Program-made: the position numbers and the translations under genes
Assembly: GCA_964545145.1 (NCBI GenBank)
Contig: CAZJFB010000001.1
Coordinates: 27,616-91,615, forward strand
Origin: an uncultured Chloracidobacterium sp.
GTDB taxonomy: Bacteria > Acidobacteriota > Blastocatellia > Pyrinomonadales > Pyrinomonadaceae
DNA: 64,000 bases
Direction: 5' to 3'
Part shown: one piece after another, positions 37,270-62,310 of the stretch
How positions within the stretch are numbered: position 1 is the stretch's first letter
How the letters are laid out: the number at the start of each line of letters is the position of its first letter
Notes under the pieces: model-generated
Told to the model about the DNA's origin: nothing
The model's input: the letters and a program-made list of their open reading frames with translations, nothing else
The model's database searches: none

Positions 37270-39201
37270 TCAATTCTGTTCGGCCCGACAAAAAATGCGG
37301 GATCCGGGGATCCGCGCTACATATTCCTTGGTTCCGGCCCATTCGTTCACAAGAAGGGCGAAGTAATGGACCTCTCCGGTGTCCAGTCTTTTTGCCACAA
37401 TGTCCAATACGGTAGACGGGTCGGCATCGTTACGATTCTTGAACCGTCCTTTAGGCCGAAGCTCGATCAGCAATACACGGTAGGGTATGTCAGGCAGGTA
37501 GTTTACTACCTTGTTTACAGCATATACGGCAGTCACTTCATCCATACCGGCGAGTTTGTGTGGGATCGAGTCGATGAACTCCTGCGTCAGGTCGTGTGCC
37601 TTGAAGTCATCGCCGGGCAGAGCTGCCTGGCGTTCCTTCTGAGCTTGTTCGTACATCTCTGCCTGTTCGTCAAGTGAGTTGGCATAGCGCTTTGCCTCAT
37701 CGAGCCGCCCTTTGCCGCGAAGAAACTCAAACGCGATCTGATCGGCCTCGAACTTTAGGCTCGTGTCCATCTCGGAGGCTTTCTGAAGATCGGCCAGCCC
37801 TCGTTCATCGTCCTGAAATAATCGTGAAAGCCCGAGGTTATACCATGTCACTGCTGCTTCAGGAAATCTCTCGACCGCCTCGTCGATCATCGGGATCGCT
37901 GCCTTGAAGCCGTCCTTTTCCGTAATCAGCTGCGCCAGTTCGCGAAGTTCCTCATGAGACAGTTCACCATTTGCTCGCGCTTCTTCGAGCTCGGCGATAC
38001 GTTTTTGCGCACCCTGAAAATGCTCGTGACGGTCCTTCCACGTTTTATCTGCCTGTTCGTCCCATTCCGCGTCGAACCCGGCGGCAAATCGCTCAGATGC
38101 TTCTCCAAGGAAAACGGTCGCGGCGTCTTGCGCTGTATCAGCCGGCAAGTCCGGCAACTCACCCGAGGTCCAATACTCAATGAGGCGAAGACGGTCGGCC
38201 AGCGACGGATGCGAGTCGTCATGATCGGTTGGCACCGCCACCGCCTTTGAAAGGGTGGCTGCGGCCTGTTCGTCCGCAACAAAACCAAGCGAATTGACCA
38301 TCCGTGTGAAGATACGCTCGGATGGTTTGTCCGAAGCAATATTCTCCTCGTGCACCTTGCGCCAAAAATCGTCCTGCAGCCTCGCACCTTTGGTCTCGAT
38401 CGAGATAAGTGCCTCGCCGAGAGCTCGAGCGCCGGCCAGTTTCGCCGCTTCGCGGTCGGCATCCTTTTCGTGCTCTCGCATCAATACGAATGAATATGCA
38501 GTAAAATACGGAAAAAACCACTCGACGAACTTCTTATATAGGGCCGAGAACCTGTGATCTGTCTCGTCCTGCGATTCAATTAGCCTGCCCCAGGCCTCAC
38601 GCATCTGATACGCCCATTTCGCGAAACCGCCATGCTTACCGGATATATGGCCGATCTCATGGGCAAGGACCGCTTTGAATTGATCGGGCGACAGTGCCTT
38701 CATCAAGGGCAGGCCGAGCAGCAATATTACCTTTTGACCGAAAATGCCGAATCTCGGCATGGTGGAGACCGCCGCGTTAAATTCATCCGTTAGAAGTACC
38801 TTAGACGGTCTTTTTGCCTTTAGCTCTTTACATGTCCGGTCGACGAAATCGAAAAGCTCGGGAGCGTCGGACCGTTTCAACTCGACGCCAGCTGGGTCGG
38901 GCAGCCTGGCCGTGATCGATTTTAACGCCGCGCCAATAAAGCCGAAGTAGACCGCGAGCCCCGGCACGAGGATCCACCATAGTTTCGCTCCTATGAGAAC
39001 AAGCCGCCAAACTTGTTCCGGTGCCTGCCAAAGAAGTAAAGCTACAACCGGGATCGGTACGAAAAATAGTAGGAGTAGCCCGAAGAAGTAGCCATAACCC
39101 ACAGCAATGAGCAGAAGTATCTTGAGTTCATAAGCACGCCGGTTCTTCGCCGCGCTGACCTCAAGATCCTGGATGAGAGAAACGTATTGATCGTATTTCA
39201 T
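37270..39201 (-). CDS. M48-family zinc metallopeptidase with membrane anchor and C-terminal TPR-like region
   Basis: N-terminal TM helices and HExxH in the M48 context (LAHEIGHISGKHG). Confidence 0.8.
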   Translation of the reverse strand: MKYDQYVSLIQDLEVSAAKNRRAYELKILLLIAVGYGYFFGLLLLFFVPIPVVALLLWQAPEQVWRLVLIGAKLWWILVPGLAVYFGFIGAALKSITARLPDPAGVELKRSDAPELFDFVDRTCKELKAKRPSKVLLTDEFNAAVSTMPRFGIFGQKVILLLGLPLMKALSPDQFKAVLAHEIGHISGKHGGFAKWAYQMREAWGRLIESQDETDHRFSALYKKFVEWFFPYFTAYSFVLMREHEKDADREAAKLAGARALGEALISIETKGARLQDDFWRKVHEENIASDKPSERIFTRMVNSLGFVADEQAAATLSKAVAVPTDHDDSHPSLADRLRLIEYWTSGELPDLPADTAQDAATVFLGEASERFAAGFDAEWDEQADKTWKDRHEHFQGAQKRIAELEEARANGELSHEELRELAQLITEKDGFKAAIPMIDEAVERFPEAAVTWYNLGLSRLFQDDERGLADLQKASEMDTSLKFEADQIAFEFLRGKGRLDEAKRYANSLDEQAEMYEQAQKERQAALPGDDFKAHDLTQEFIDSIPHKLAGMDEVTAVYAVNKVVNYLPDIPYRVLLIELRPKGRFKNRNDADPSTVLDIVAKRLDTGEVHYFALLVNEWAGTKEYVARIPGSRIFCRAEQN

Positions 39202-39224: not shown

Positions 39225-39773
39225 TTACTTGTTGGTTCTCATTTCGGCCAGGGCTTTTTTGAATTTGTCGCTTTCGCGAAACTTGGCAAAAGAACTATCG
39301 ATCTCGGGATCGGGGAACCTCTCACCCTCGAGCATATTTGCCTTGTACTTGAAGGCAGGACGCAGCCATTTTATCGCGTTATCCTCGTCACCGAGTTCGC
39401 CATAGCCGCACGCCATGTTGTAGTAAAAGAGCGGATAAGTTGGCTCTTTGCTTATCCCGTATTCAAAGACTGCGTGCGACGATCTGATATCGCCCGTTAT
39501 GCCATATGATATTCCGAGATTGTCGACGAGCGCGATCCAGAGCTTGCGTTCGAGCTTGCGCTCCTGCTTTTCCAGGTCGAGGGCTTTCTGATACGGCGGT
39601 ATGGCCTTCTTGTAATCACCGGCCAGGTAGTACCTGCTCCCCTCGGCCATATATTCAAGAGATGATTTCTGTTTATCAGCGGCCGGTGCGCGCTCAGCGT
39701 TGGCCACATTTAGTGTGGTTGAGGTACATGCTATCAATACGAAGAAAAAGGAGAATAGGAGTAAGGCTTTCAT
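39225..39773 (-). CDS. TPR-like lipoprotein
   Basis: Lipobox-like FFFVLIAC leader. Short TPR-like repeats (YYLAGDYKKAIPPYQKALDL). Confidence 0.65.
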   Translation of the reverse strand: MKALLLFSFFFVLIACTSTTLNVANAERAPAADKQKSSLEYMAEGSRYYLAGDYKKAIPPYQKALDLEKQERKLERKLWIALVDNLGISYGITGDIRSSHAVFEYGISKEPTYPLFYYNMACGYGELGDEDNAIKWLRPAFKYKANMLEGERFPDPEIDSSFAKFRESDKFKKALAEMRTNK

Positions 39774-39975: not shown

Positions 39976-41622
39976 TCACTTTGTCCCAAACTCTGCCAGG
40001 TAGCGCAGGTTGATCTGCGAGGCGTCGTAAACGATACATTCATGATTGAGGACGCCGCCGCGGCCGGGCTCGACCCAGGTCGTGTTGGTATTGCGGACGG
40101 GATAGCTGCCGCTGTAAGAGTGGACCTTATGCACGCGGCCCAGGGCGACGGTACACAGGAACATAAACGTTCGCTGGGCGCTGGCGCCGCTGCGATTCCA
40201 GTAACCGGTCGCGTAGTTGAGCGCCTTGGTGCTCTGCAGGCTGGTGTAGATGCCGTTGCCAAACATTCGCCCGGTGCAGTGTGCAGCATTGGCAGGTGGA
40301 ATGACGAGGCCGTGCTTGAGTATCGAGAGCAGGTTTGACGCGCGGGTGCCGTGCCACAGGTCGTCGCGGATGTTGCCGAGCCTGGCGGCCGTCGCGTCGT
40401 ATCGCCGCTTCATATCGGCGATCTCGACCTCGTAAAGCCGAGTCATCTGCAGCCCGGCCGCGACTGGGTGATGCTGTACGTTTCGCGTCGAGAAATACAG
40501 GTCGCGTATCCTTCGGTAAAGCTCGCGGCCCTCGGTGGTGTAGTGCGGCACCTTGGTAAGGCGGCATTCAAAGAGCCTCGGCCTGTCGGGCGTAGGCTCG
40601 TCGCGGGATAGCGCCGCCTCGAGCGCGTCGAGTATCGACACTTCCTCCTGAAACTGCTCCTCGGTCGCGATCAGCGTCTCGGCGGCCGGTATCTTCATAC
40701 CGAAATCCTTTGGCACGAGCTGGAAATACTGCCGCACGACGCCGGCACGTTTTTTGTGCTGCCGCCGCGTCAGGCCGTCGAGCCGGCGCAGCTCGGCGAT
40801 CAGGTCGCGTGCCTCATTGATCGCCTCGGGCGTCAGTATGCCGAGCGGCGTCGAGAATGAACCGGTCTTTGCGTTGTACTTGATGTTGGTCGAGTGTGTG
40901 ATGTGGTGTATGTTGACCTCGGCGAGGTACTTGATAAGCTCGGCCGTGGCGTTGTCGGACGAACCTTCGATCTCGTCGGCGGCGATCTTTGAGAGGCTGG
41001 ACCTCTTTCCCGCGGGAAGCACGGCCTGCGTGTCGTTGTCGATCGTGACCGTGTCCTTGTACCCTTTGCGAAGCTTTTCGCGGCGCTTTCGCTCCAACTC
41101 CTGCAGGGCGGCAGACTGGTCGCTAAACCGCTTTGTGCTCGAATGGAGATTTGCCTCGTCACGCACACGCCCAAACCGCGTCTCAAATCCACCGTCGGAA
41201 TACGCGATGCCGATCCACACCTTGTTTGAGTTCTCGTCCGGGTCGAAGTAGTTCATCCGGTACTGCTTGACGACGGTGCCGCTGCTGCTGGTGACAGCGA
41301 CCGTCGAACTCAGCTGCACTCTGCGCACGGCCCTCGGCACGATCTTCCCGAGCGAGACCGGAGCGTAACCCAATAACCGCCGATAGAACGCCAGTGTGCG
41401 GTCGGCGATCTTGCCCGTTAGACTCTGCGGCAGCAAAAACCAGCCGACCACGCCAACGACGATCACAACAAAGGCGCCGACCAAAATGATCCAAAACCTC
41501 GCGTCGGGAGTGTACACTGTCCGCGGCTGACCGGCATCGGAGATCCCGGTCATGAGCACCCGCATCCCACCGGCCACACCCAGCCAGATCAAGAATATCG
41601 ATATTCCGCGCCTTAGGTTCAT
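39976..41622 (-). CDS. membrane-anchored WGR-domain poly(ADP-ribose) polymerase (PARP) homologue
   Basis: Two N-terminal hydrophobic helices. WGR-like block KVWIGIAYSDGGFETRFGRV. PARP catalytic blocks LWHGTRASNLLSILKHGL (His), GNGIYTS (Tyr) and NHECIVYD (Glu). Confidence 0.85.
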   Translation of the reverse strand: MNLRRGISIFLIWLGVAGGMRVLMTGISDAGQPRTVYTPDARFWIILVGAFVVIVVGVVGWFLLPQSLTGKIADRTLAFYRRLLGYAPVSLGKIVPRAVRRVQLSSTVAVTSSSGTVVKQYRMNYFDPDENSNKVWIGIAYSDGGFETRFGRVRDEANLHSSTKRFSDQSAALQELERKRREKLRKGYKDTVTIDNDTQAVLPAGKRSSLSKIAADEIEGSSDNATAELIKYLAEVNIHHITHSTNIKYNAKTGSFSTPLGILTPEAINEARDLIAELRRLDGLTRRQHKKRAGVVRQYFQLVPKDFGMKIPAAETLIATEEQFQEEVSILDALEAALSRDEPTPDRPRLFECRLTKVPHYTTEGRELYRRIRDLYFSTRNVQHHPVAAGLQMTRLYEVEIADMKRRYDATAARLGNIRDDLWHGTRASNLLSILKHGLVIPPANAAHCTGRMFGNGIYTSLQSTKALNYATGYWNRSGASAQRTFMFLCTVALGRVHKVHSYSGSYPVRNTNTTWVEPGRGGVLNHECIVYDASQINLRYLAEFGTK

Positions 41623-41781
41623 AGGAGTCGATCTGCTTCGATGGCGAGTCGAGATCTCAGGCCACGGCCGCGCTTGGGATAAGCTTGTCGGGCATCAAGC
41701 CTGTGATCGTTAGAGATCGGTCCTTAGAATCTACTTTATCTATGCCTTTTGTGTCTATCGAAGCTGTTGGCAGCCGCCTGC

Positions 41782-42186
41782 TTATAGCGCTCGCTTCTTA
41801 TGTGCCGCGGCCCGCGGGCACGGGCGGGCGGTGCGCAGGTCAAGGACAAGGAAGCCGTCGTCGTCGATGTCGGCGTCGTAAAATCGCACGGTGTGCGGCA
41901 GCTCGATGCGGTATTCGCGCGTTAGGCGGTGGCCGCGAACGAGCTTTGCCCCCGAGCGGTTTGATGCTCGCACCGGGTAGGCATTGCGGGCATGCAGCGA
42001 CGCGGGCTTTAGGCCGATACGCCTGTTCGTCTCGTCAAAGAGCAGGACAAACGCCTTTGGCTCGCCCATCTTTTCGAACGTGATCCGGCTCAGTACAATG
42101 TCGCCCATCGGGTTCATCGTCACATAGATGCCGGCGTATTGCGGCAGAACGTCGCCGCGTGGGCACTCTCGCCAGTCTGGTCTCAT
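41782..42186 (-). CDS. small hypothetical protein, paralogue A of 61825-62310
   Basis: 134 aa with GGAGG 8 nt upstream of the ATG. It aligns to the 61825-62310 product over about 120 aa, with shared blocks LLFD(E/D)xN, IGxxPA, (Y/F)PVR, RFxD and G(F/I)LxLDL(R/K)T. No family recognised. Confidence 0.6.
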   Translation of the reverse strand: MRPDWRECPRGDVLPQYAGIYVTMNPMGDIVLSRITFEKMGEPKAFVLLFDETNRRIGLKPASLHARNAYPVRASNRSGAKLVRGHRLTREYRIELPHTVRFYDADIDDDGFLVLDLRTARPCPRAAAHKKRAL

Positions 42187-42257
42187 ATTTTTGCCTCCAT
42201 AGGATAATTCCCGGGCACAATATGAGCAGAATTAGAATTCGATTGGAATACCGAACC

Positions 42258-42343
42258 GCCGATAATGTCGCAAAATGCCGATAATGTCGCATACCGCCGA
42301 TATTGCCGATACTGCCGATACTGCCGATACCGACGCTATCGGC
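42258..42343. repeat. GCCGATA heptamer array (6 direct + 1 inverted copy)
   Basis: GCCGATAATGTCGCA occurs twice (42258, 42277). GCCGATA(T/C)(T/C) 9-mers then occur four times in tandem (42296, 42305, 42314, 42323), followed by an inverted TATCGGC at 42337-42343. Confidence 0.85.
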
Positions 42344-42459: not shown

Positions 42460-42539
42460 GGTGACACAACTGGGTGTTTTTGGTGACCCAACCGGGGGTT
42501 TTTGATGACACAACGGGCAAAAGCGGTGACCCGAGCGGG
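42460..42539. repeat. four iteron-like repeats, GGTGAC(A/C)C(A/G)A(C)YGGG, at 21-22-bp spacing
   Basis: Copies start at 42460, 42482, 42504 and 42525. The array is bracketed by GGATCCGG at 42445-42452 and 42538-42545. It lies about 270 bp upstream of the 41782-42186 gene. Confidence 0.8.
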
Positions 42540-53278: not shown

Positions 53279-54409
53279 ATGGCTACTTTTTCTGACAGTA
53301 CTTCCGATTCTGTTTTACCTGAGCACTCGGTGGCGAAAGTTAAATTGCTCGGCGAATATTTAAGGTTGTTTTTGAGCATCATTGCAAACGATGGTTATAC
53401 GAAGCGAATACGTATCTTTGACTTATTTTGCGGTGAGGGTATTTACGGTGATTCTGGGGAGGGAAGCCCAATCGTCATTATGAAGGCCGTGAAAGACCTT
53501 TATTACACAAGGGAATCAAAATCATTTCGATCGCCCAAGATAGATTGCTACTTCAACGATAATAATAAGGACAAAGTTCTAAAGGTTGAAGAAAGTATAA
53601 AAACAAAACATCTTCACTACTCTCAAATTGGCGAGATAGCCTATAGCAATCGAAACTACGACGATTTTATTAAGGAACTAATCCAAAGACTCCCGGAAAG
53701 TCGGGATGAAAAGAACTTTGTTTTTATTGATCCCTACGGATACAAGCATATAAGAGCAAGTGACATCCAAGCTCTCCTTTCAAAAGGAAACGTAGAAGTC
53801 CTACTATTTCTGCCCACTCAGTTTATGTATCGCTTCGATTCAAATGGAATGCCGGAAGCTTTAGTAGATTTCATCGAAGAGATCGTTGACTATGGGCAGT
53901 GGAAAGAGACTGATAGCGTTTGGGGGTTTGTCGAGCAACTGAAAATAGCATTTAGACAAAACCTTGGTGCAAGAAGATTTGTCGACACATTCACGATTCA
54001 GAAAGATCCTCAGACTGTATTTTGCTTGTTCTTTTTTAGCAGCCATATCAAAGGCTTTGAAAAAATGTTAGAAGCAAAGTGGAAACTTGATAAAGATCAG
54101 GGGAAGGGGTGGAATTATAGAGGTGATCAACAAAGTAGTTTGTTTTCTGAACTCAAGATTCATCCGCTTGAACAGAAAATGCGAGCATTTCTAACAGAAG
54201 AAGTTAGAGGGAACGGTGATGTGTATGAATTTACACTTCAATGCGGTTTTCTACCCAAACACACGACTGAAGTCTTTACGAACTTGCAAAAATTAGAACA
54301 ATTAATTGTGGAAGACAAACACGGTACGCGAGTACGGAAAGGTTCATTCTATATTAATTACAAGGCGTTTCGAGACGATCCGACTAAAGTACGCTTCTTC
54401 TTAAGCTAG
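53279..54409 (+). CDS. three-Cys-motif partner protein (TcmP)-like, Rossmann/methyltransferase-like fold
   Basis: AGGAGG 8 nt upstream of the ATG. Motifs [14 protein letters not shown] and FVFIDPYGY. Located directly upstream of a Gp37/Gp68 gene, and AT-rich. Confidence 0.75.
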
Positions 54410-54411
54410 TT

Positions 54412-55131
54412 ATGGCACACAAATCTCCGATCGAATGGACCGAATCGACTTGGAACCCGGTAACAGGCTGCAAAAAGATCAGCCCGGGCTGTAAGAATTG
54501 CTACGCCGAGCGGTTATCAAAACGGTTGCAAGCAATGGGTCAGGCAAATTATGTAAATGGATTTGAGCTGACACTCCAGCCACATATGCTTGAACTTCCG
54601 TTGAGGTGGAAAAAGCCACAGACCATATTCGTAAATTCGATGAGCGATCTTTTCCACATCGACGTTCCGCTGGATTACATTCAGCAGGTCTTTGATGTGA
54701 TGAATCAGGCATTTTGGCATCGCTTTCAGGTTTTGACCAAACGAGCGGATCGCTTGGAAGAGCTTAGTTCTGAACTCAATTGGTCAGCAAACATTTGGAT
54801 GGGGGTTTCTGTTGAGAATCAGAAGTATGTCCATCGAATCGATCATCTGCGCCGAACTGATGCGAAAGTGAAATTCCTTTCGCTTGAACCATTGATCGGC
54901 CCTTTGAAGGGAATGAATTTGTCTGGTATCGATTGGGCAATTGTCGGCGGCGAAAGCGGCTATGGCTTTAGACCGATCAAAGAAGAGTGGGTACTGGATA
55001 TCAGAAAACAATGCGACGAATTTAATGTTCCTTTCTTCTTCAAACAGTGGGGCGGTTTTAACAAAAAGAAAACTGGGCGAATGCTCGAGGGACGTACTTA
55101 CGACGAAATGCCAAAACTAGCTTATGCCTAA
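54412..55131 (+). CDS. phage Gp37/Gp68 family protein (DUF5131), Cx6Cx2C motif
   Basis: [28 protein letters not shown]-terminus, then LSLEPL and WAIVGGESG blocks. AT-rich. Confidence 0.85.
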
Positions 55132-61787: not shown

Positions 61788-61824
61788 TGCAACAGCCTAT
61801 TATATATGCAAAGGAGATAGCCAA

Positions 61825-62310
61825 ATGGCCACAATATGGAAAACCTATCGCGGCGGGCCGACAAAGGCTCCCGCAACTGTCGTAAACATTTCGATCAACA
61901 GCAAGAACGTCATTACGCTTAACCGCCAAGCGTACGAATTGATCAGCCGTGCCGAGTCGGCCGTGCTGCTGTTTGACGACAAGAACAGCGTGATCGGCAT
62001 CGTACCGGCAAACCACAAGAATGCCGAGGCATTCCCCGTGAGGCCCAAGAACGAAGGGAATTGGATCATCAACGCCGCACCATTTTGCCGGCACTTTCGG
62101 ATCTCGGTGGACCGGACCGAGCGGTTTGACGACCCCCAGGTAGATAACGAGGGAATTTTACACCTCGACCTGAAGCGCACGCACAACGTCAGCCTGAAAC
62201 GCGGCCGCCGCCAAAAGGCCGACCCGTCCCCAAACCAATATGCGGGCAGATCAGGCGGCTCTGTTGCCGAGCTTGAACCAGCTCGCGATGAACAAAACGC
62301 CAAGCAGTAG
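61825..62310 (+). CDS. small hypothetical protein, paralogue B of 41782-42186
   Basis: The ATG at 61825 has a good SD (the ORF-track start at 61759 falls on the -35 box). It is alignable to paralogue A and has a basic/disordered C-terminal tail. Confidence 0.6.
   Translation: MATIWKTYRGGPTKAPATVVNISINSKNVITLNRQAYELISRAESAVLLFDDKNSVIGIVPANHKNAEAFPVRPKNEGNWIINAAPFCRHFRISVDRTERFDDPQVDNEGILHLDLKRTHNVSLKRGRRQKADPSPNQYAGRSGGSVAELEPARDEQNAKQ

Follow-up and report, generated by a model that had tools for sequence, protein, structure and literature searches.

The poly(ADP-ribose) polymerases, or PARPs, are central to DNA-break signalling in eukaryotes and are major drug targets. Their prokaryotic counterparts have barely been studied: assays cover two enzymes and surveys 72 sequences, and for none of them is a physiological role known. 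The published surveys covered 28 and later 72 bacterial proteins from six phyla, Acidobacteria not included, all built solely from WGR, PARP_reg and PARP domains with no mention of a transmembrane (TM) segment; bacterial PARPs are thought to have been acquired horizontally, and the DNA-activated enzyme HaPARP makes poly(ADP-ribose) (PMC4245714, PMC5966428, PMC8120803). The membrane-anchored PARPs in these surveys are eukaryotic only, namely PARP16, anchored at its C-terminus, and a PARP12-like protein of a sponge whose TM segment is N-terminal (PMC4245714). PARPs of phages have been noted in comparative studies, with no role assigned to them (PMC7824862, PMC9503650). Here we describe a gene for a PARP homolog in a 64,000-nucleotide stretch of DNA from an uncultured Chloracidobacterium sp. 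of the Acidobacteriota (the whole stretch is referred to below as the window), which joins the sensor and catalytic domains known from human PARP1 and PARP2 to a predicted membrane hairpin at the N-terminus.

The gene occupies positions 39976 to 41622 of the window on the minus strand, and is a 548-amino-acid open reading frame (ORF) with an ATG start and a TGA stop, preceded by in-frame stop codons. A first-pass annotation, made from the letters alone, had reported this ORF without its strand; the coordinates were verified, and the strand is supplied here. The protein is identical to an entry (P0001) of the public collection that lies on a 3.9-kb contig. Three Pfam domains were detected above their curated cut-offs: PARP catalytic, PF00644 (residues 369-543, E 1.3e-23, 84 bits against a cut-off of 26.7), PARP_reg, PF02877 (residues 225-335, E 5e-8, 33.5 bits against 26.8), and WGR, PF05406 (residues 122-191, E 1.4e-5, 25.5 bits against 22). 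An NCBIfam scan of the protein returned noise only. An AlphaFold2 model (pLDDT 79) placed these domains in one confident body, and the whole ORF reads as a hairpin, a third helix, a linker, the WGR domain, the helical domain (HD, corresponding to PARP_reg) and the ADP-ribosyltransferase (ART) domain. By the Pfam match and the family profile, the WGR domain covers residues 117-191 (41050-41274), with N-x-N-K at 131-134 and F-G-R at 150-152. The HD spans residues 210-340 approximately (40603-40995), as judged from PF02877, modelled helices at 210-338 and an alignment to the HD of PARP2, and the ART domain takes up the remainder from about residue 350 to 548 (39979-40575), as judged from PF00644, the alignment of the triad and Foldseek.

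The catalytic triad is in register with that of PARP2. The motifs LWHGTR (H424, codon 40351-40353), GNGIYTS (Y459, codon 40246-40248) and NHECIVYD (E528, codon 40039-40041) aligned to LWHGSR, GKGIYFA and NYNEYIVYN respectively, and among 54 family members H424 and Y459 are invariant while E528 is conserved in at least 90%. The closest solved relatives are PARP2 (E 4e-19 with the single sequence and 5e-30 with a family profile) and also PARP1. The family profile carries the alignment through the WGR domain, where N-x-N-K and [W/F/Y]-G-R match the NNNK and WGR motifs of PARP2; the N-x-N-K columns are invariant, and the position that is F in the F-G-R of the query is W, F or Y in its relatives. 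A Foldseek search with the AlphaFold2 model retrieved DNA-bound PARP2 (7aeo) and PARP1 (4dqy) at E of about 1e-22, and PARP1/2 catalytic structures at E 1e-18 to 1e-23. All of the PARP clade 1 features that were tested were found, these being the ART domain, H-Y-E in register, an HD on the N-terminal side of the ART domain, and the WGR motifs. The gene thus encodes a PARP of the clade 1 type, with a WGR sensor, a helical autoinhibitory domain and an H-Y-E ART domain. This bears out the first-pass annotation, which had called a WGR-PARP with an intact triad: all three domains, PF00644 included, score above cut-off, the triad is aligned, and the fold matches. Its statement that H-Y-E marks polymer-forming PARPs was right as to the presence of the triad and wrong as to what it marks, because H-Y-E is necessary and not sufficient for polymer formation, and PARP3 and PARP4 have H-Y-E yet are mono-transferases. 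PARP4 chains named mono-ADP-ribosyltransferase were among the solved-structure matches. H-Y-E alone does not decide between poly- and mono-ADP-ribosylation.

In front of this body lie three helices, which were modelled by AlphaFold2 at residues 3-26, 41-63 and 66-84 and are followed by a disordered stretch at 87-112. Helix 1 (LRRGISIFLIWLGVAGGMRVLMTG, 41545-41616) would form the first arm of the hairpin; its hydrophobicity is marginal, with a Kyte-Doolittle (KD) value of 1.8 and an insertion energy of about +1.9, mainly because of a conserved Arg near the end of the helix. A G-x-R-x-L pattern in this helix is common to the hairpin variants, and the helix itself is present in all seven of them. 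Helix 2 (ARFWIILVGAFVVIVVGVVGWFL, 41434-41502) is a strong TM candidate (KD 2.94, insertion energy about -3.1; for residues 45-63 the summed apparent value is -3.08), and an insertion-energy scan found no comparably insertable segment past residue 70. The two helices are separated by a short loop of residues 27-40 (41503-41544), which is predicted to be periplasmic. Helix 3 (41371-41427) is positively charged and moderately amphipathic (hydrophobic moment about 0.5), and corresponds in sequence to the N-terminal extension of relatives of about 466 amino acids that have no hairpin. A flexible Ser/Thr/Val-rich linker (residues 85-116, 41275-41370; pLDDT below 50 at 87-112) leads to the WGR domain and contains a VSLGKI-P motif shared with the relatives in the same crown clade. 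Both of the hydrophobic segments reported in the first-pass annotation therefore exist, and helix 2 is the only confident TM span of the two; the treatment of the helices as equals and the use of H-Y-E as a polymer marker are the two points on which its structural reading has to be corrected, the rest being right.

The hairpin region is predicted to be translated and under purifying selection, and is not an artefact of start-codon choice. This conclusion rests on four features of the hairpin variants. The start MNL[KR] or MNVK is conserved in the window protein (WIN), L005/L011, L010 and P0121. The two-segment pattern recurs despite strong divergence in WIN, L005/L011 (P0002), L010 (P0146), P0121, P0014 and P0025 (L001/L013), and also in L003 if that gene is read from its upstream start. 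The N-terminal reading frame is open in all hairpin variants, and the three comparisons with the least saturation gave dN/dS values of 0.31-0.45 over residues 1-65 and 0.17-0.19 over the core. As for topology, the net charges of the query are +2 for the N-terminal flank, 0 for the loop (about 14-17 residues) and +3 for the C-terminal flank. In the other six variants the loop is near neutral and the flanks are mostly positive, so that across all seven the loop carries -2 to +1 and the flanks up to +3. By the positive-inside rule, these charges point to a hairpin in the inner membrane with both the N- and C-terminus inside, and we estimate that the PARP body is cytoplasmic. Because there are two hydrophobic segments, removal of helix 1 as a signal peptide would still leave the C-terminus in the cytoplasm.

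To judge how common this architecture is, an exhaustive HMMER search was run over 1.84 billion cluster representatives (50% identity), giving 2584 matches at E of 1e-3 or below, 344 of them below E 1e-30. Among the best 150 representatives, the other 149 contained no TM segment save for P0146, an N-terminal fragment from the same clade as the window protein. Most of the best 120 homologs are 430-470 amino acids long and are without a hydrophobic segment, and none of the 50 genome and 23 viral loci outside the Pyrinomonadaceae crown group has a TM segment. The predicted membrane hairpin is thus a rare feature, and one not reported for any WGR-PARP. The first-pass annotation had called a membrane tether on a WGR-PARP unusual and proposed looking for the architecture in other genomes, where it proved to be confined to a small crown group; both the published surveys and our own search agree with it. 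Its description of bacterial PARP homologs as sporadic, by contrast, understates their number, since a search of the public collection returned 709 homolog matches in addition to the 344 representatives just mentioned; horizontal acquisition, the other half of that description, is the view of the surveys. The idea that the hairpin is a module shared with unrelated proteins was rejected, as a search with the N-terminal 128 residues found one further PARP N-terminal fragment only. Two other representatives carry different additions: P0196 (549 amino acids) has a low-complexity tail of about 115 residues rich in Lys, Pro, Ala and Thr that is reminiscent of histone H1 or AT-hook tails, and P0174 (490 amino acids) has a different N-terminal addition again. 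Such variety suggests that innovation at the N-terminus has occurred repeatedly in this family.

The relatives, all of which come from metagenomes or metagenome-assembled genomes (MAGs), link the family to phages. Pattern-based scans placed close relatives in MAGs of Pyrinomonadaceae, 'Chloracidobacterium' and Blastocatellia, in many pleurocapsalean and other cyanobacteria, in Armatimonadota and in one Gemmataceae MAG. An alignment-based scan found relatives on 23 IMG/VR viral contigs, many of them 300-540 kb in length; a single-protein scan of viral contigs with P0093 gave no match. The window protein matched PHROG 23333 at E 6.1e-39 (residues 132-545 against positions 18-382 of the 383-position profile), and annotated PARPs of Xanthomonas, Klebsiella and Stenotrophomonas phages are 28-30% identical to it over about 77% of its length. 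Acidobacteriota relatives of about 430 amino acids, which are 52-57% identical to the window protein, lie among phage genes. In L007 and L008 the PARP is accompanied by tape-measure, phiTE_241_C, ArdC-N and HTH_17 genes, L021/L060 has a terminase and a portal gene, L020 and L022 have genes for tape-measure and tail proteins, and L018 has an endolysin gene; in all of these loci phage structural or lysis genes lie within 10 kb of the short PARP. We also observed that the Acidobacteriota prophage PARP is often located towards an end of the phage region, with an excisionase-like HTH_17 gene in divergent orientation alongside, and that HigB/HTH_3, SocA_Panacea, ArdC-N and N6-methyltransferase genes occur near these PARPs.

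The forms of about 466 amino acids and the hairpin forms, on the other hand, sit among ordinary chromosomal genes. A neighbour-joining tree, computed from the core region without support values and with viral and cyanobacterial sequences as the root, placed the short forms at the base, the 466-amino-acid extension clade nested within them, and the hairpins in a crown group of 15 leaves. From this unbootstrapped tree and the gene contexts, we infer a stepwise history in which an accessory gene carried by temperate and jumbo phages probably settled as a stand-alone gene in the chromosome of Pyrinomonadaceae, acquiring first an N-terminal helix and later, within a small crown group, the membrane hairpin.

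Flanking ORFs within 6 kb were clustered across 83 loci. In eight viral loci from IMG/VR (L061, L068 and L077-L082) and in one prophage-like locus of the Pyrinomonadaceae (L018:12535-13581), the PARP has an ATP-dependent DNA ligase gene (PF01068 with a ligase OB domain) no more than a few kb away, in most cases on the same strand. The two genes may form a phage PARP-ligase pair for the handling of breaks, and their proximity gives circumstantial support to an action of the family on DNA breaks. In seven cyanobacterial loci (L035, L038, L039, L041, L043, L045 and L056) a divergent gene recognised by eye as a TetR-like regulator lies directly upstream of the PARP, suggesting regulated expression in that clade; beyond it, most of these loci have a GST-like gene and a gene for a protein of about 206 amino acids, possibly of the Uma2 type when judged by eye. 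In six further loci, three of them bacterial (two Blastocatellia and one Capsulimonadales) and three from jumbo phages (L049, L050, L055, L063, L069 and L071), the PARP is followed on the same strand by a protein of 166-226 amino acids without a Pfam match. These proteins share an FTAFD motif and are a possible partner in that subclade.

The hairpin forms occur in two chromosomal settings. One lies between TtcA and a gene of the beta-lactamase family (WIN, L003, L005, L010 and L011); here the position of the PARP relative to an M48 peptidase gene varies between genomes, as does the cargo (MFS/LysR genes, MazE, an IS200-like gene, RhuM, and a methyltransferase-type pair). Synteny links the window to the chromosomal regions of the other four. 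The other setting is the region from RecO/LptFG to AdoHcyase/MetK (L001/L013/L014). The clustered flanks yielded no conserved operon partner for the hairpin PARP. The absence of PARG, macrodomain and NUDIX partners from the window, asserted in the first-pass annotation, was upheld by a Pfam scan of 27 window ORFs, in which no ARH was found either; the remaining window ORFs were recognised by eye as housekeeping genes. None of these four families was present in the annotated flanks of nine homolog loci, and no phage hallmark gene was found among the window ORFs.

Taken together, we consider it reasonably probable that the gene encodes a cytoplasm-facing ADP-ribosyltransferase at the inner membrane which is activated by nucleic-acid ends and is of phage ancestry. 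The hairpin would insert into the inner membrane with both ends in the cytoplasm, holding the enzyme on a flexible tether at the inner face, near NAD+ and nucleic acids. Binding of a nucleic-acid end by the WGR domain would relieve autoinhibition by the HD, by homology with PARP1, PARP2, PARP3 and the DNA-dependent Herpetosiphon enzyme, and ADP-ribose from NAD+ would then be transferred to the enzyme itself, to nearby proteins or to DNA ends, as polymer or as mono-adducts. The intact WGR and HD and the DNA-ligase neighbours of the phage relatives argue that the sensing of DNA ends was retained and not replaced. As for the role of such an enzyme, the one that we regard as likeliest, in a speculation that carries somewhat less than even confidence, is to act on DNA ends at the envelope, such as those of entering phage or other foreign DNA, in an exclusion or defence function derived from prophage ancestors. 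A role on entering DNA is suggested by the phage ancestry, the variable region in which the gene lies and the restriction of the enzyme to the membrane; a role in conflict draws circumstantial support from the phage and prophage ancestry. In a more specific form, which we think unlikely, the protein would stand sentinel for DNA ends at the membrane, as the descendant of a gene by which a prophage excluded superinfection. Its WGR domain would detect the free end of linear phage, plasmid or transforming DNA at entry, and the end or nearby proteins would be ADP-ribosylated, or NAD+ consumed locally, blocking establishment of the invader.

Several observations weigh against the preferred interpretation as a whole. 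Helix 1 is marginal as a TM span, as described above, and the ancestral N-terminal helix, that of the extension forms, is moderately amphipathic, with a median hydrophobic moment of 0.455 and with only 56% of members beating shuffled sequences at p<0.05. Hairpin and extension-only forms interleave within the crown clade of the tree, which means either several gains and losses or poor resolution. Some copies of hairpin or extension forms in MAGs are interrupted, by an in-frame TAG in L010 (9399-11054) and by frameshifts in L014 (10007-11462) and L017. Such interruptions could stem from errors of sequencing, above all where long reads were assembled, or from gene decay, which would point to dispensability. 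In the catalytic domain, Ala467 (codon 40222-40224) is at the position of PARP1 Ser904, the residue that contacts nicotinamide and that PARP inhibitors exploit. Ala replaces it throughout the close family, being invariant in the alignment of 54 sequences and present in 161 of the 240 motif-matching sequences collected, and Ser is kept in more distant relatives. Finally, the neighbours in the window are housekeeping or envelope genes and not defence genes, and a search of PADLOC-DB 2.0 with the window PARP returned no family at E up to 1, on which ground membership of a known defence system was rejected.

These surroundings would suit a housekeeping enzyme for DNA damage or stress signalling that marks chromosomal breaks, like the Herpetosiphon and C. 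difficile enzymes or PARP2, with an anchor that just limits or localises its activity, for instance to membrane-proximal nucleoid or replication sites. The WGR, HD and ART domains are intact with their DNA-contact motifs, the gene is stably located among chromosomal housekeeping genes in several genomes, the ligase neighbours of the phage relatives point to break metabolism, and the characterised bacterial PARPs are activated by DNA (PMC8120803). We nevertheless think this explanation, the chief competitor of our own, somewhat unlikely, since no Ku, LigD, RecA-type repair gene, PARG or macrodomain was linked to the gene in the chromosomal loci examined, a membrane tether would restrict the access of a break sensor to most of the chromosome, and the family is patchy and phage-linked where a conserved core function would not be. 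The same phage links could instead indicate an abortive-infection effector, in which sensing of phage nucleic acid would lead to death or arrest, either by burning of NAD+ or through a hairpin that oligomerises and perturbs the membrane. N-terminal TM segments are common in abortive-infection effectors, and the catalytic domain consumes NAD+. The prophage ancestry speaks for such an effector too, as do the toxin-antitoxin, anti-restriction and methyltransferase genes near the PARP in L007 and L008, and the TtcA-to-beta-lactamase stretch is variable, with MazE, RhuM and IS200-like genes in relatives. However, there is no PADLOC match, the gene stands alone with neither a sensor nor an effector partner, its hairpin has two helices only, one of them marginal, and the retained HD and WGR fit regulated transfer better than a bulk NADase, so that we hold this version to be quite unlikely. 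On the broader suggestion of the first-pass annotation, an NAD-consuming or ADP-ribosylating effector in place of a DNA-repair factor, the circumstantial evidence is mixed: the phage and prophage ancestry favours it, and the intact WGR and HD with the ligase neighbours in phages speak for sensing of DNA ends.

Both of these alternatives accept the N-terminus as it is read here, and it is also conceivable, in our judgement very improbably, that the hydrophobic segments are not part of a mature cytoplasmic protein in this form. Translation from an in-frame TTG at codon 83 or GTG at codon 95, both of which are present, would give a soluble PARP like the relatives of about 466 amino acids, and most relatives indeed have no such segment. 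Alternatively, helix 1, which is marginal as a TM span and resembles a signal peptide (RR followed by a hydrophobic run), could be cleaved, or helix 2 could be a type II anchor, and a cleaved signal or signal anchor would put the enzyme outside the cytoplasm as an exported toxin. A downstream start is difficult to reconcile with the conserved sequence next to the ATG, the open frame and the dN/dS below 0.5 over residues 1-65 in several lineages, and past M24 no in-frame ATG occurs until M122, a start at which would truncate the WGR domain. Export is opposed by the two hydrophobic segments, which leave the C-terminus cytoplasmic whether or not helix 1 is cleaved, by a C-terminal flank that is more positive than the loop in most variants, and by the cytoplasmic location of the substrates NAD+ and DNA. 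A regulated, cytoplasm-facing transferase held at the inner membrane remains the interpretation that we prefer.

The region around the gene has further features. Upstream of the PARP is an intergenic region of 159 bp (41623-41781) with one weak promoter-like site on the minus strand, TAGACA-18-TAGATT (41757-41728); in promoter and terminator scans the number of sites was not above that in shuffled controls. Next comes an ORF of 134 amino acids (41782-42186, minus strand), the product of which had no Pfam, PHROG or PDB match. It lies beside TtcA in L003, L010 and L011 also (55-79% identity), and has a 29%-identical paralog at 61822-62310 on the plus strand, with a GC content of 0.625, as high as that of the PARP. 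As an obligate partner of the PARP this ORF was rejected: it recurs in WIN, L003, L010 and L011 but tracks TtcA, and in the other genomes it is not next to the PARP, since the M48 gene, an IS200-like gene or a cassette of the methyltransferase type intervenes. A partner of the AbrB/MazE fold was likewise rejected, as hhalign gave probabilities of 0.1-0.35% for the 134-amino-acid family, the MazE downstream of the PARP in L003 and the cluster of 166-226 amino acids, and no PDB profile matched. GC content is raised over the PARP and the 134-amino-acid ORF (0.59-0.64), and the GC3 of the PARP, 0.79, is the maximum in the window (median 0.64); several neighbours are nearly as high, which makes this weak evidence of recent transfer. 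No tRNA gene was found in the window when it was checked for an island or integration site. Two short tandem-repeat arrays (42247-42330 and 42460-42514) were noted between TtcA and the 134-amino-acid ORF, one of period 9/19 with about 3.4-6 copies and the other of period 22 with 2.5 copies.

Directly downstream of the PARP are genes for an 182-amino-acid TPR lipoprotein (39225-39773, minus strand) and a 643-amino-acid membrane M48-family peptidase (37270-39201, minus strand). The M48 gene adjoins the PARP in L003/L004 and the TPR gene follows it in L005; since the gene order is reversed in L003, this adjacency is probably synteny and not a functional link. A cassette of two genes is located at 53279-55131 of the window (plus strand) and occurs again at L010:6939-8767 and L016:7567-9294. 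Its first protein, of about 370 amino acids, has a GMT-like winged helix-turn-helix domain, and by eye the pair was read as TcmP-like followed by DUF5131 or phage Gp37-Gp68-like. Its presence in the window and just upstream of the PARP in the two other loci makes the cassette look mobile.

The sensor-enzyme module of the PARP1/2 type thus belongs to a large and largely unsurveyed family that extends beyond the six surveyed phyla to Acidobacteriota, Cyanobacteria, Armatimonadota and many phages. Its gene contexts tie it to phage biology, and within phages to DNA ligase, and one small lineage appears to have fixed its PARP to the membrane. Should the tethered enzyme prove active and responsive to DNA ends, a simple system of one gene would be at hand in which to study bacterial PARP function and to ask if a sensor of the repair type, once confined in space, becomes a guard against incoming DNA. 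Should it prove inactive or soluble, the finding would come down to another divergent bacterial PARP homolog. Were the sentinel proposal true, it would amount to a single-gene, PARP-based mechanism of bacterial immunity and would provide a prokaryotic and phage context for the origin of the DNA-break-sensing PARPs of eukaryotes. The architecture and the phage-linked family are relevant to specialists in ADP-ribosylation and phage defence; a new mechanism is not shown by the present evidence.

Compared with known systems, the window protein shares with the C-terminal module of human PARP2 and PARP1 the order WGR-HD-ART, the H-Y-E triad and the aligned NNNK and WGR motifs. It differs in its low identity to them (about 20-25%), in having F-G-R in place of W-G-R and Ala at the Ser904 position, in its bacterial host, and in the absence of an HPF1 or PARG context; the zinc fingers, BRCT domain and basic N-terminal region are found in the human proteins only, and a membrane hairpin stands in place of these N-terminal modules. 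HaPARP and CdPARP are bacterial proteins with the same WGR(-PARP_reg)-PARP architecture and H-Y-E. They consist of three domains only, were purified as soluble proteins and come from organisms with a functional PARG, whereas the window protein belongs to an Acidobacteriota host, begins with about 116 additional residues that include the hairpin, and has no eraser gene within the 64-kb window.

PARP16 has a single C-terminal TM segment as a tail anchor, contains neither WGR nor HD, and acts as a mono-transferase that has no catalytic Glu; the window protein has an N-terminal anchor of two helices, a WGR domain and an HD, and Glu as its third triad residue. PARP16 and the sponge PARP12-like protein resemble it as membrane-tethered ARTs of the PARP family that face the cytoplasm (PMC4245714). 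No specific sequence relationship to either was found, suggesting that anchoring arose independently. The DarTG, Thoeris and SIR2 systems use NAD+ in phage-host conflict and are possible functional analogies. DarT is cited in one comparative study as ADP-ribosylating DNA (PMC9503650); its homology to the window PARP goes no further than the ART superfamily, and the window PARP has no antitoxin or partner gene and no PADLOC match. The PARPs of PHROG 23333 phages (such as Xanthomonas jumbo phage XacN1, Klebsiella phage vB_KpM_FBKp34 and Stenotrophomonas phage CM1) share the full profile match from WGR to ART, but start at the WGR domain without the N-terminal extension or TM segment of the window protein, and many are encoded near an ATP-dependent DNA ligase gene, where the window gene is chromosomal. 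The window PARP is neither of the characterised soluble type that is paired with a PARG nor part of any known defence system; by its predicted domains and profile matches it is a member of PARP clade 1 and of the phage-linked PHROG 23333 family.

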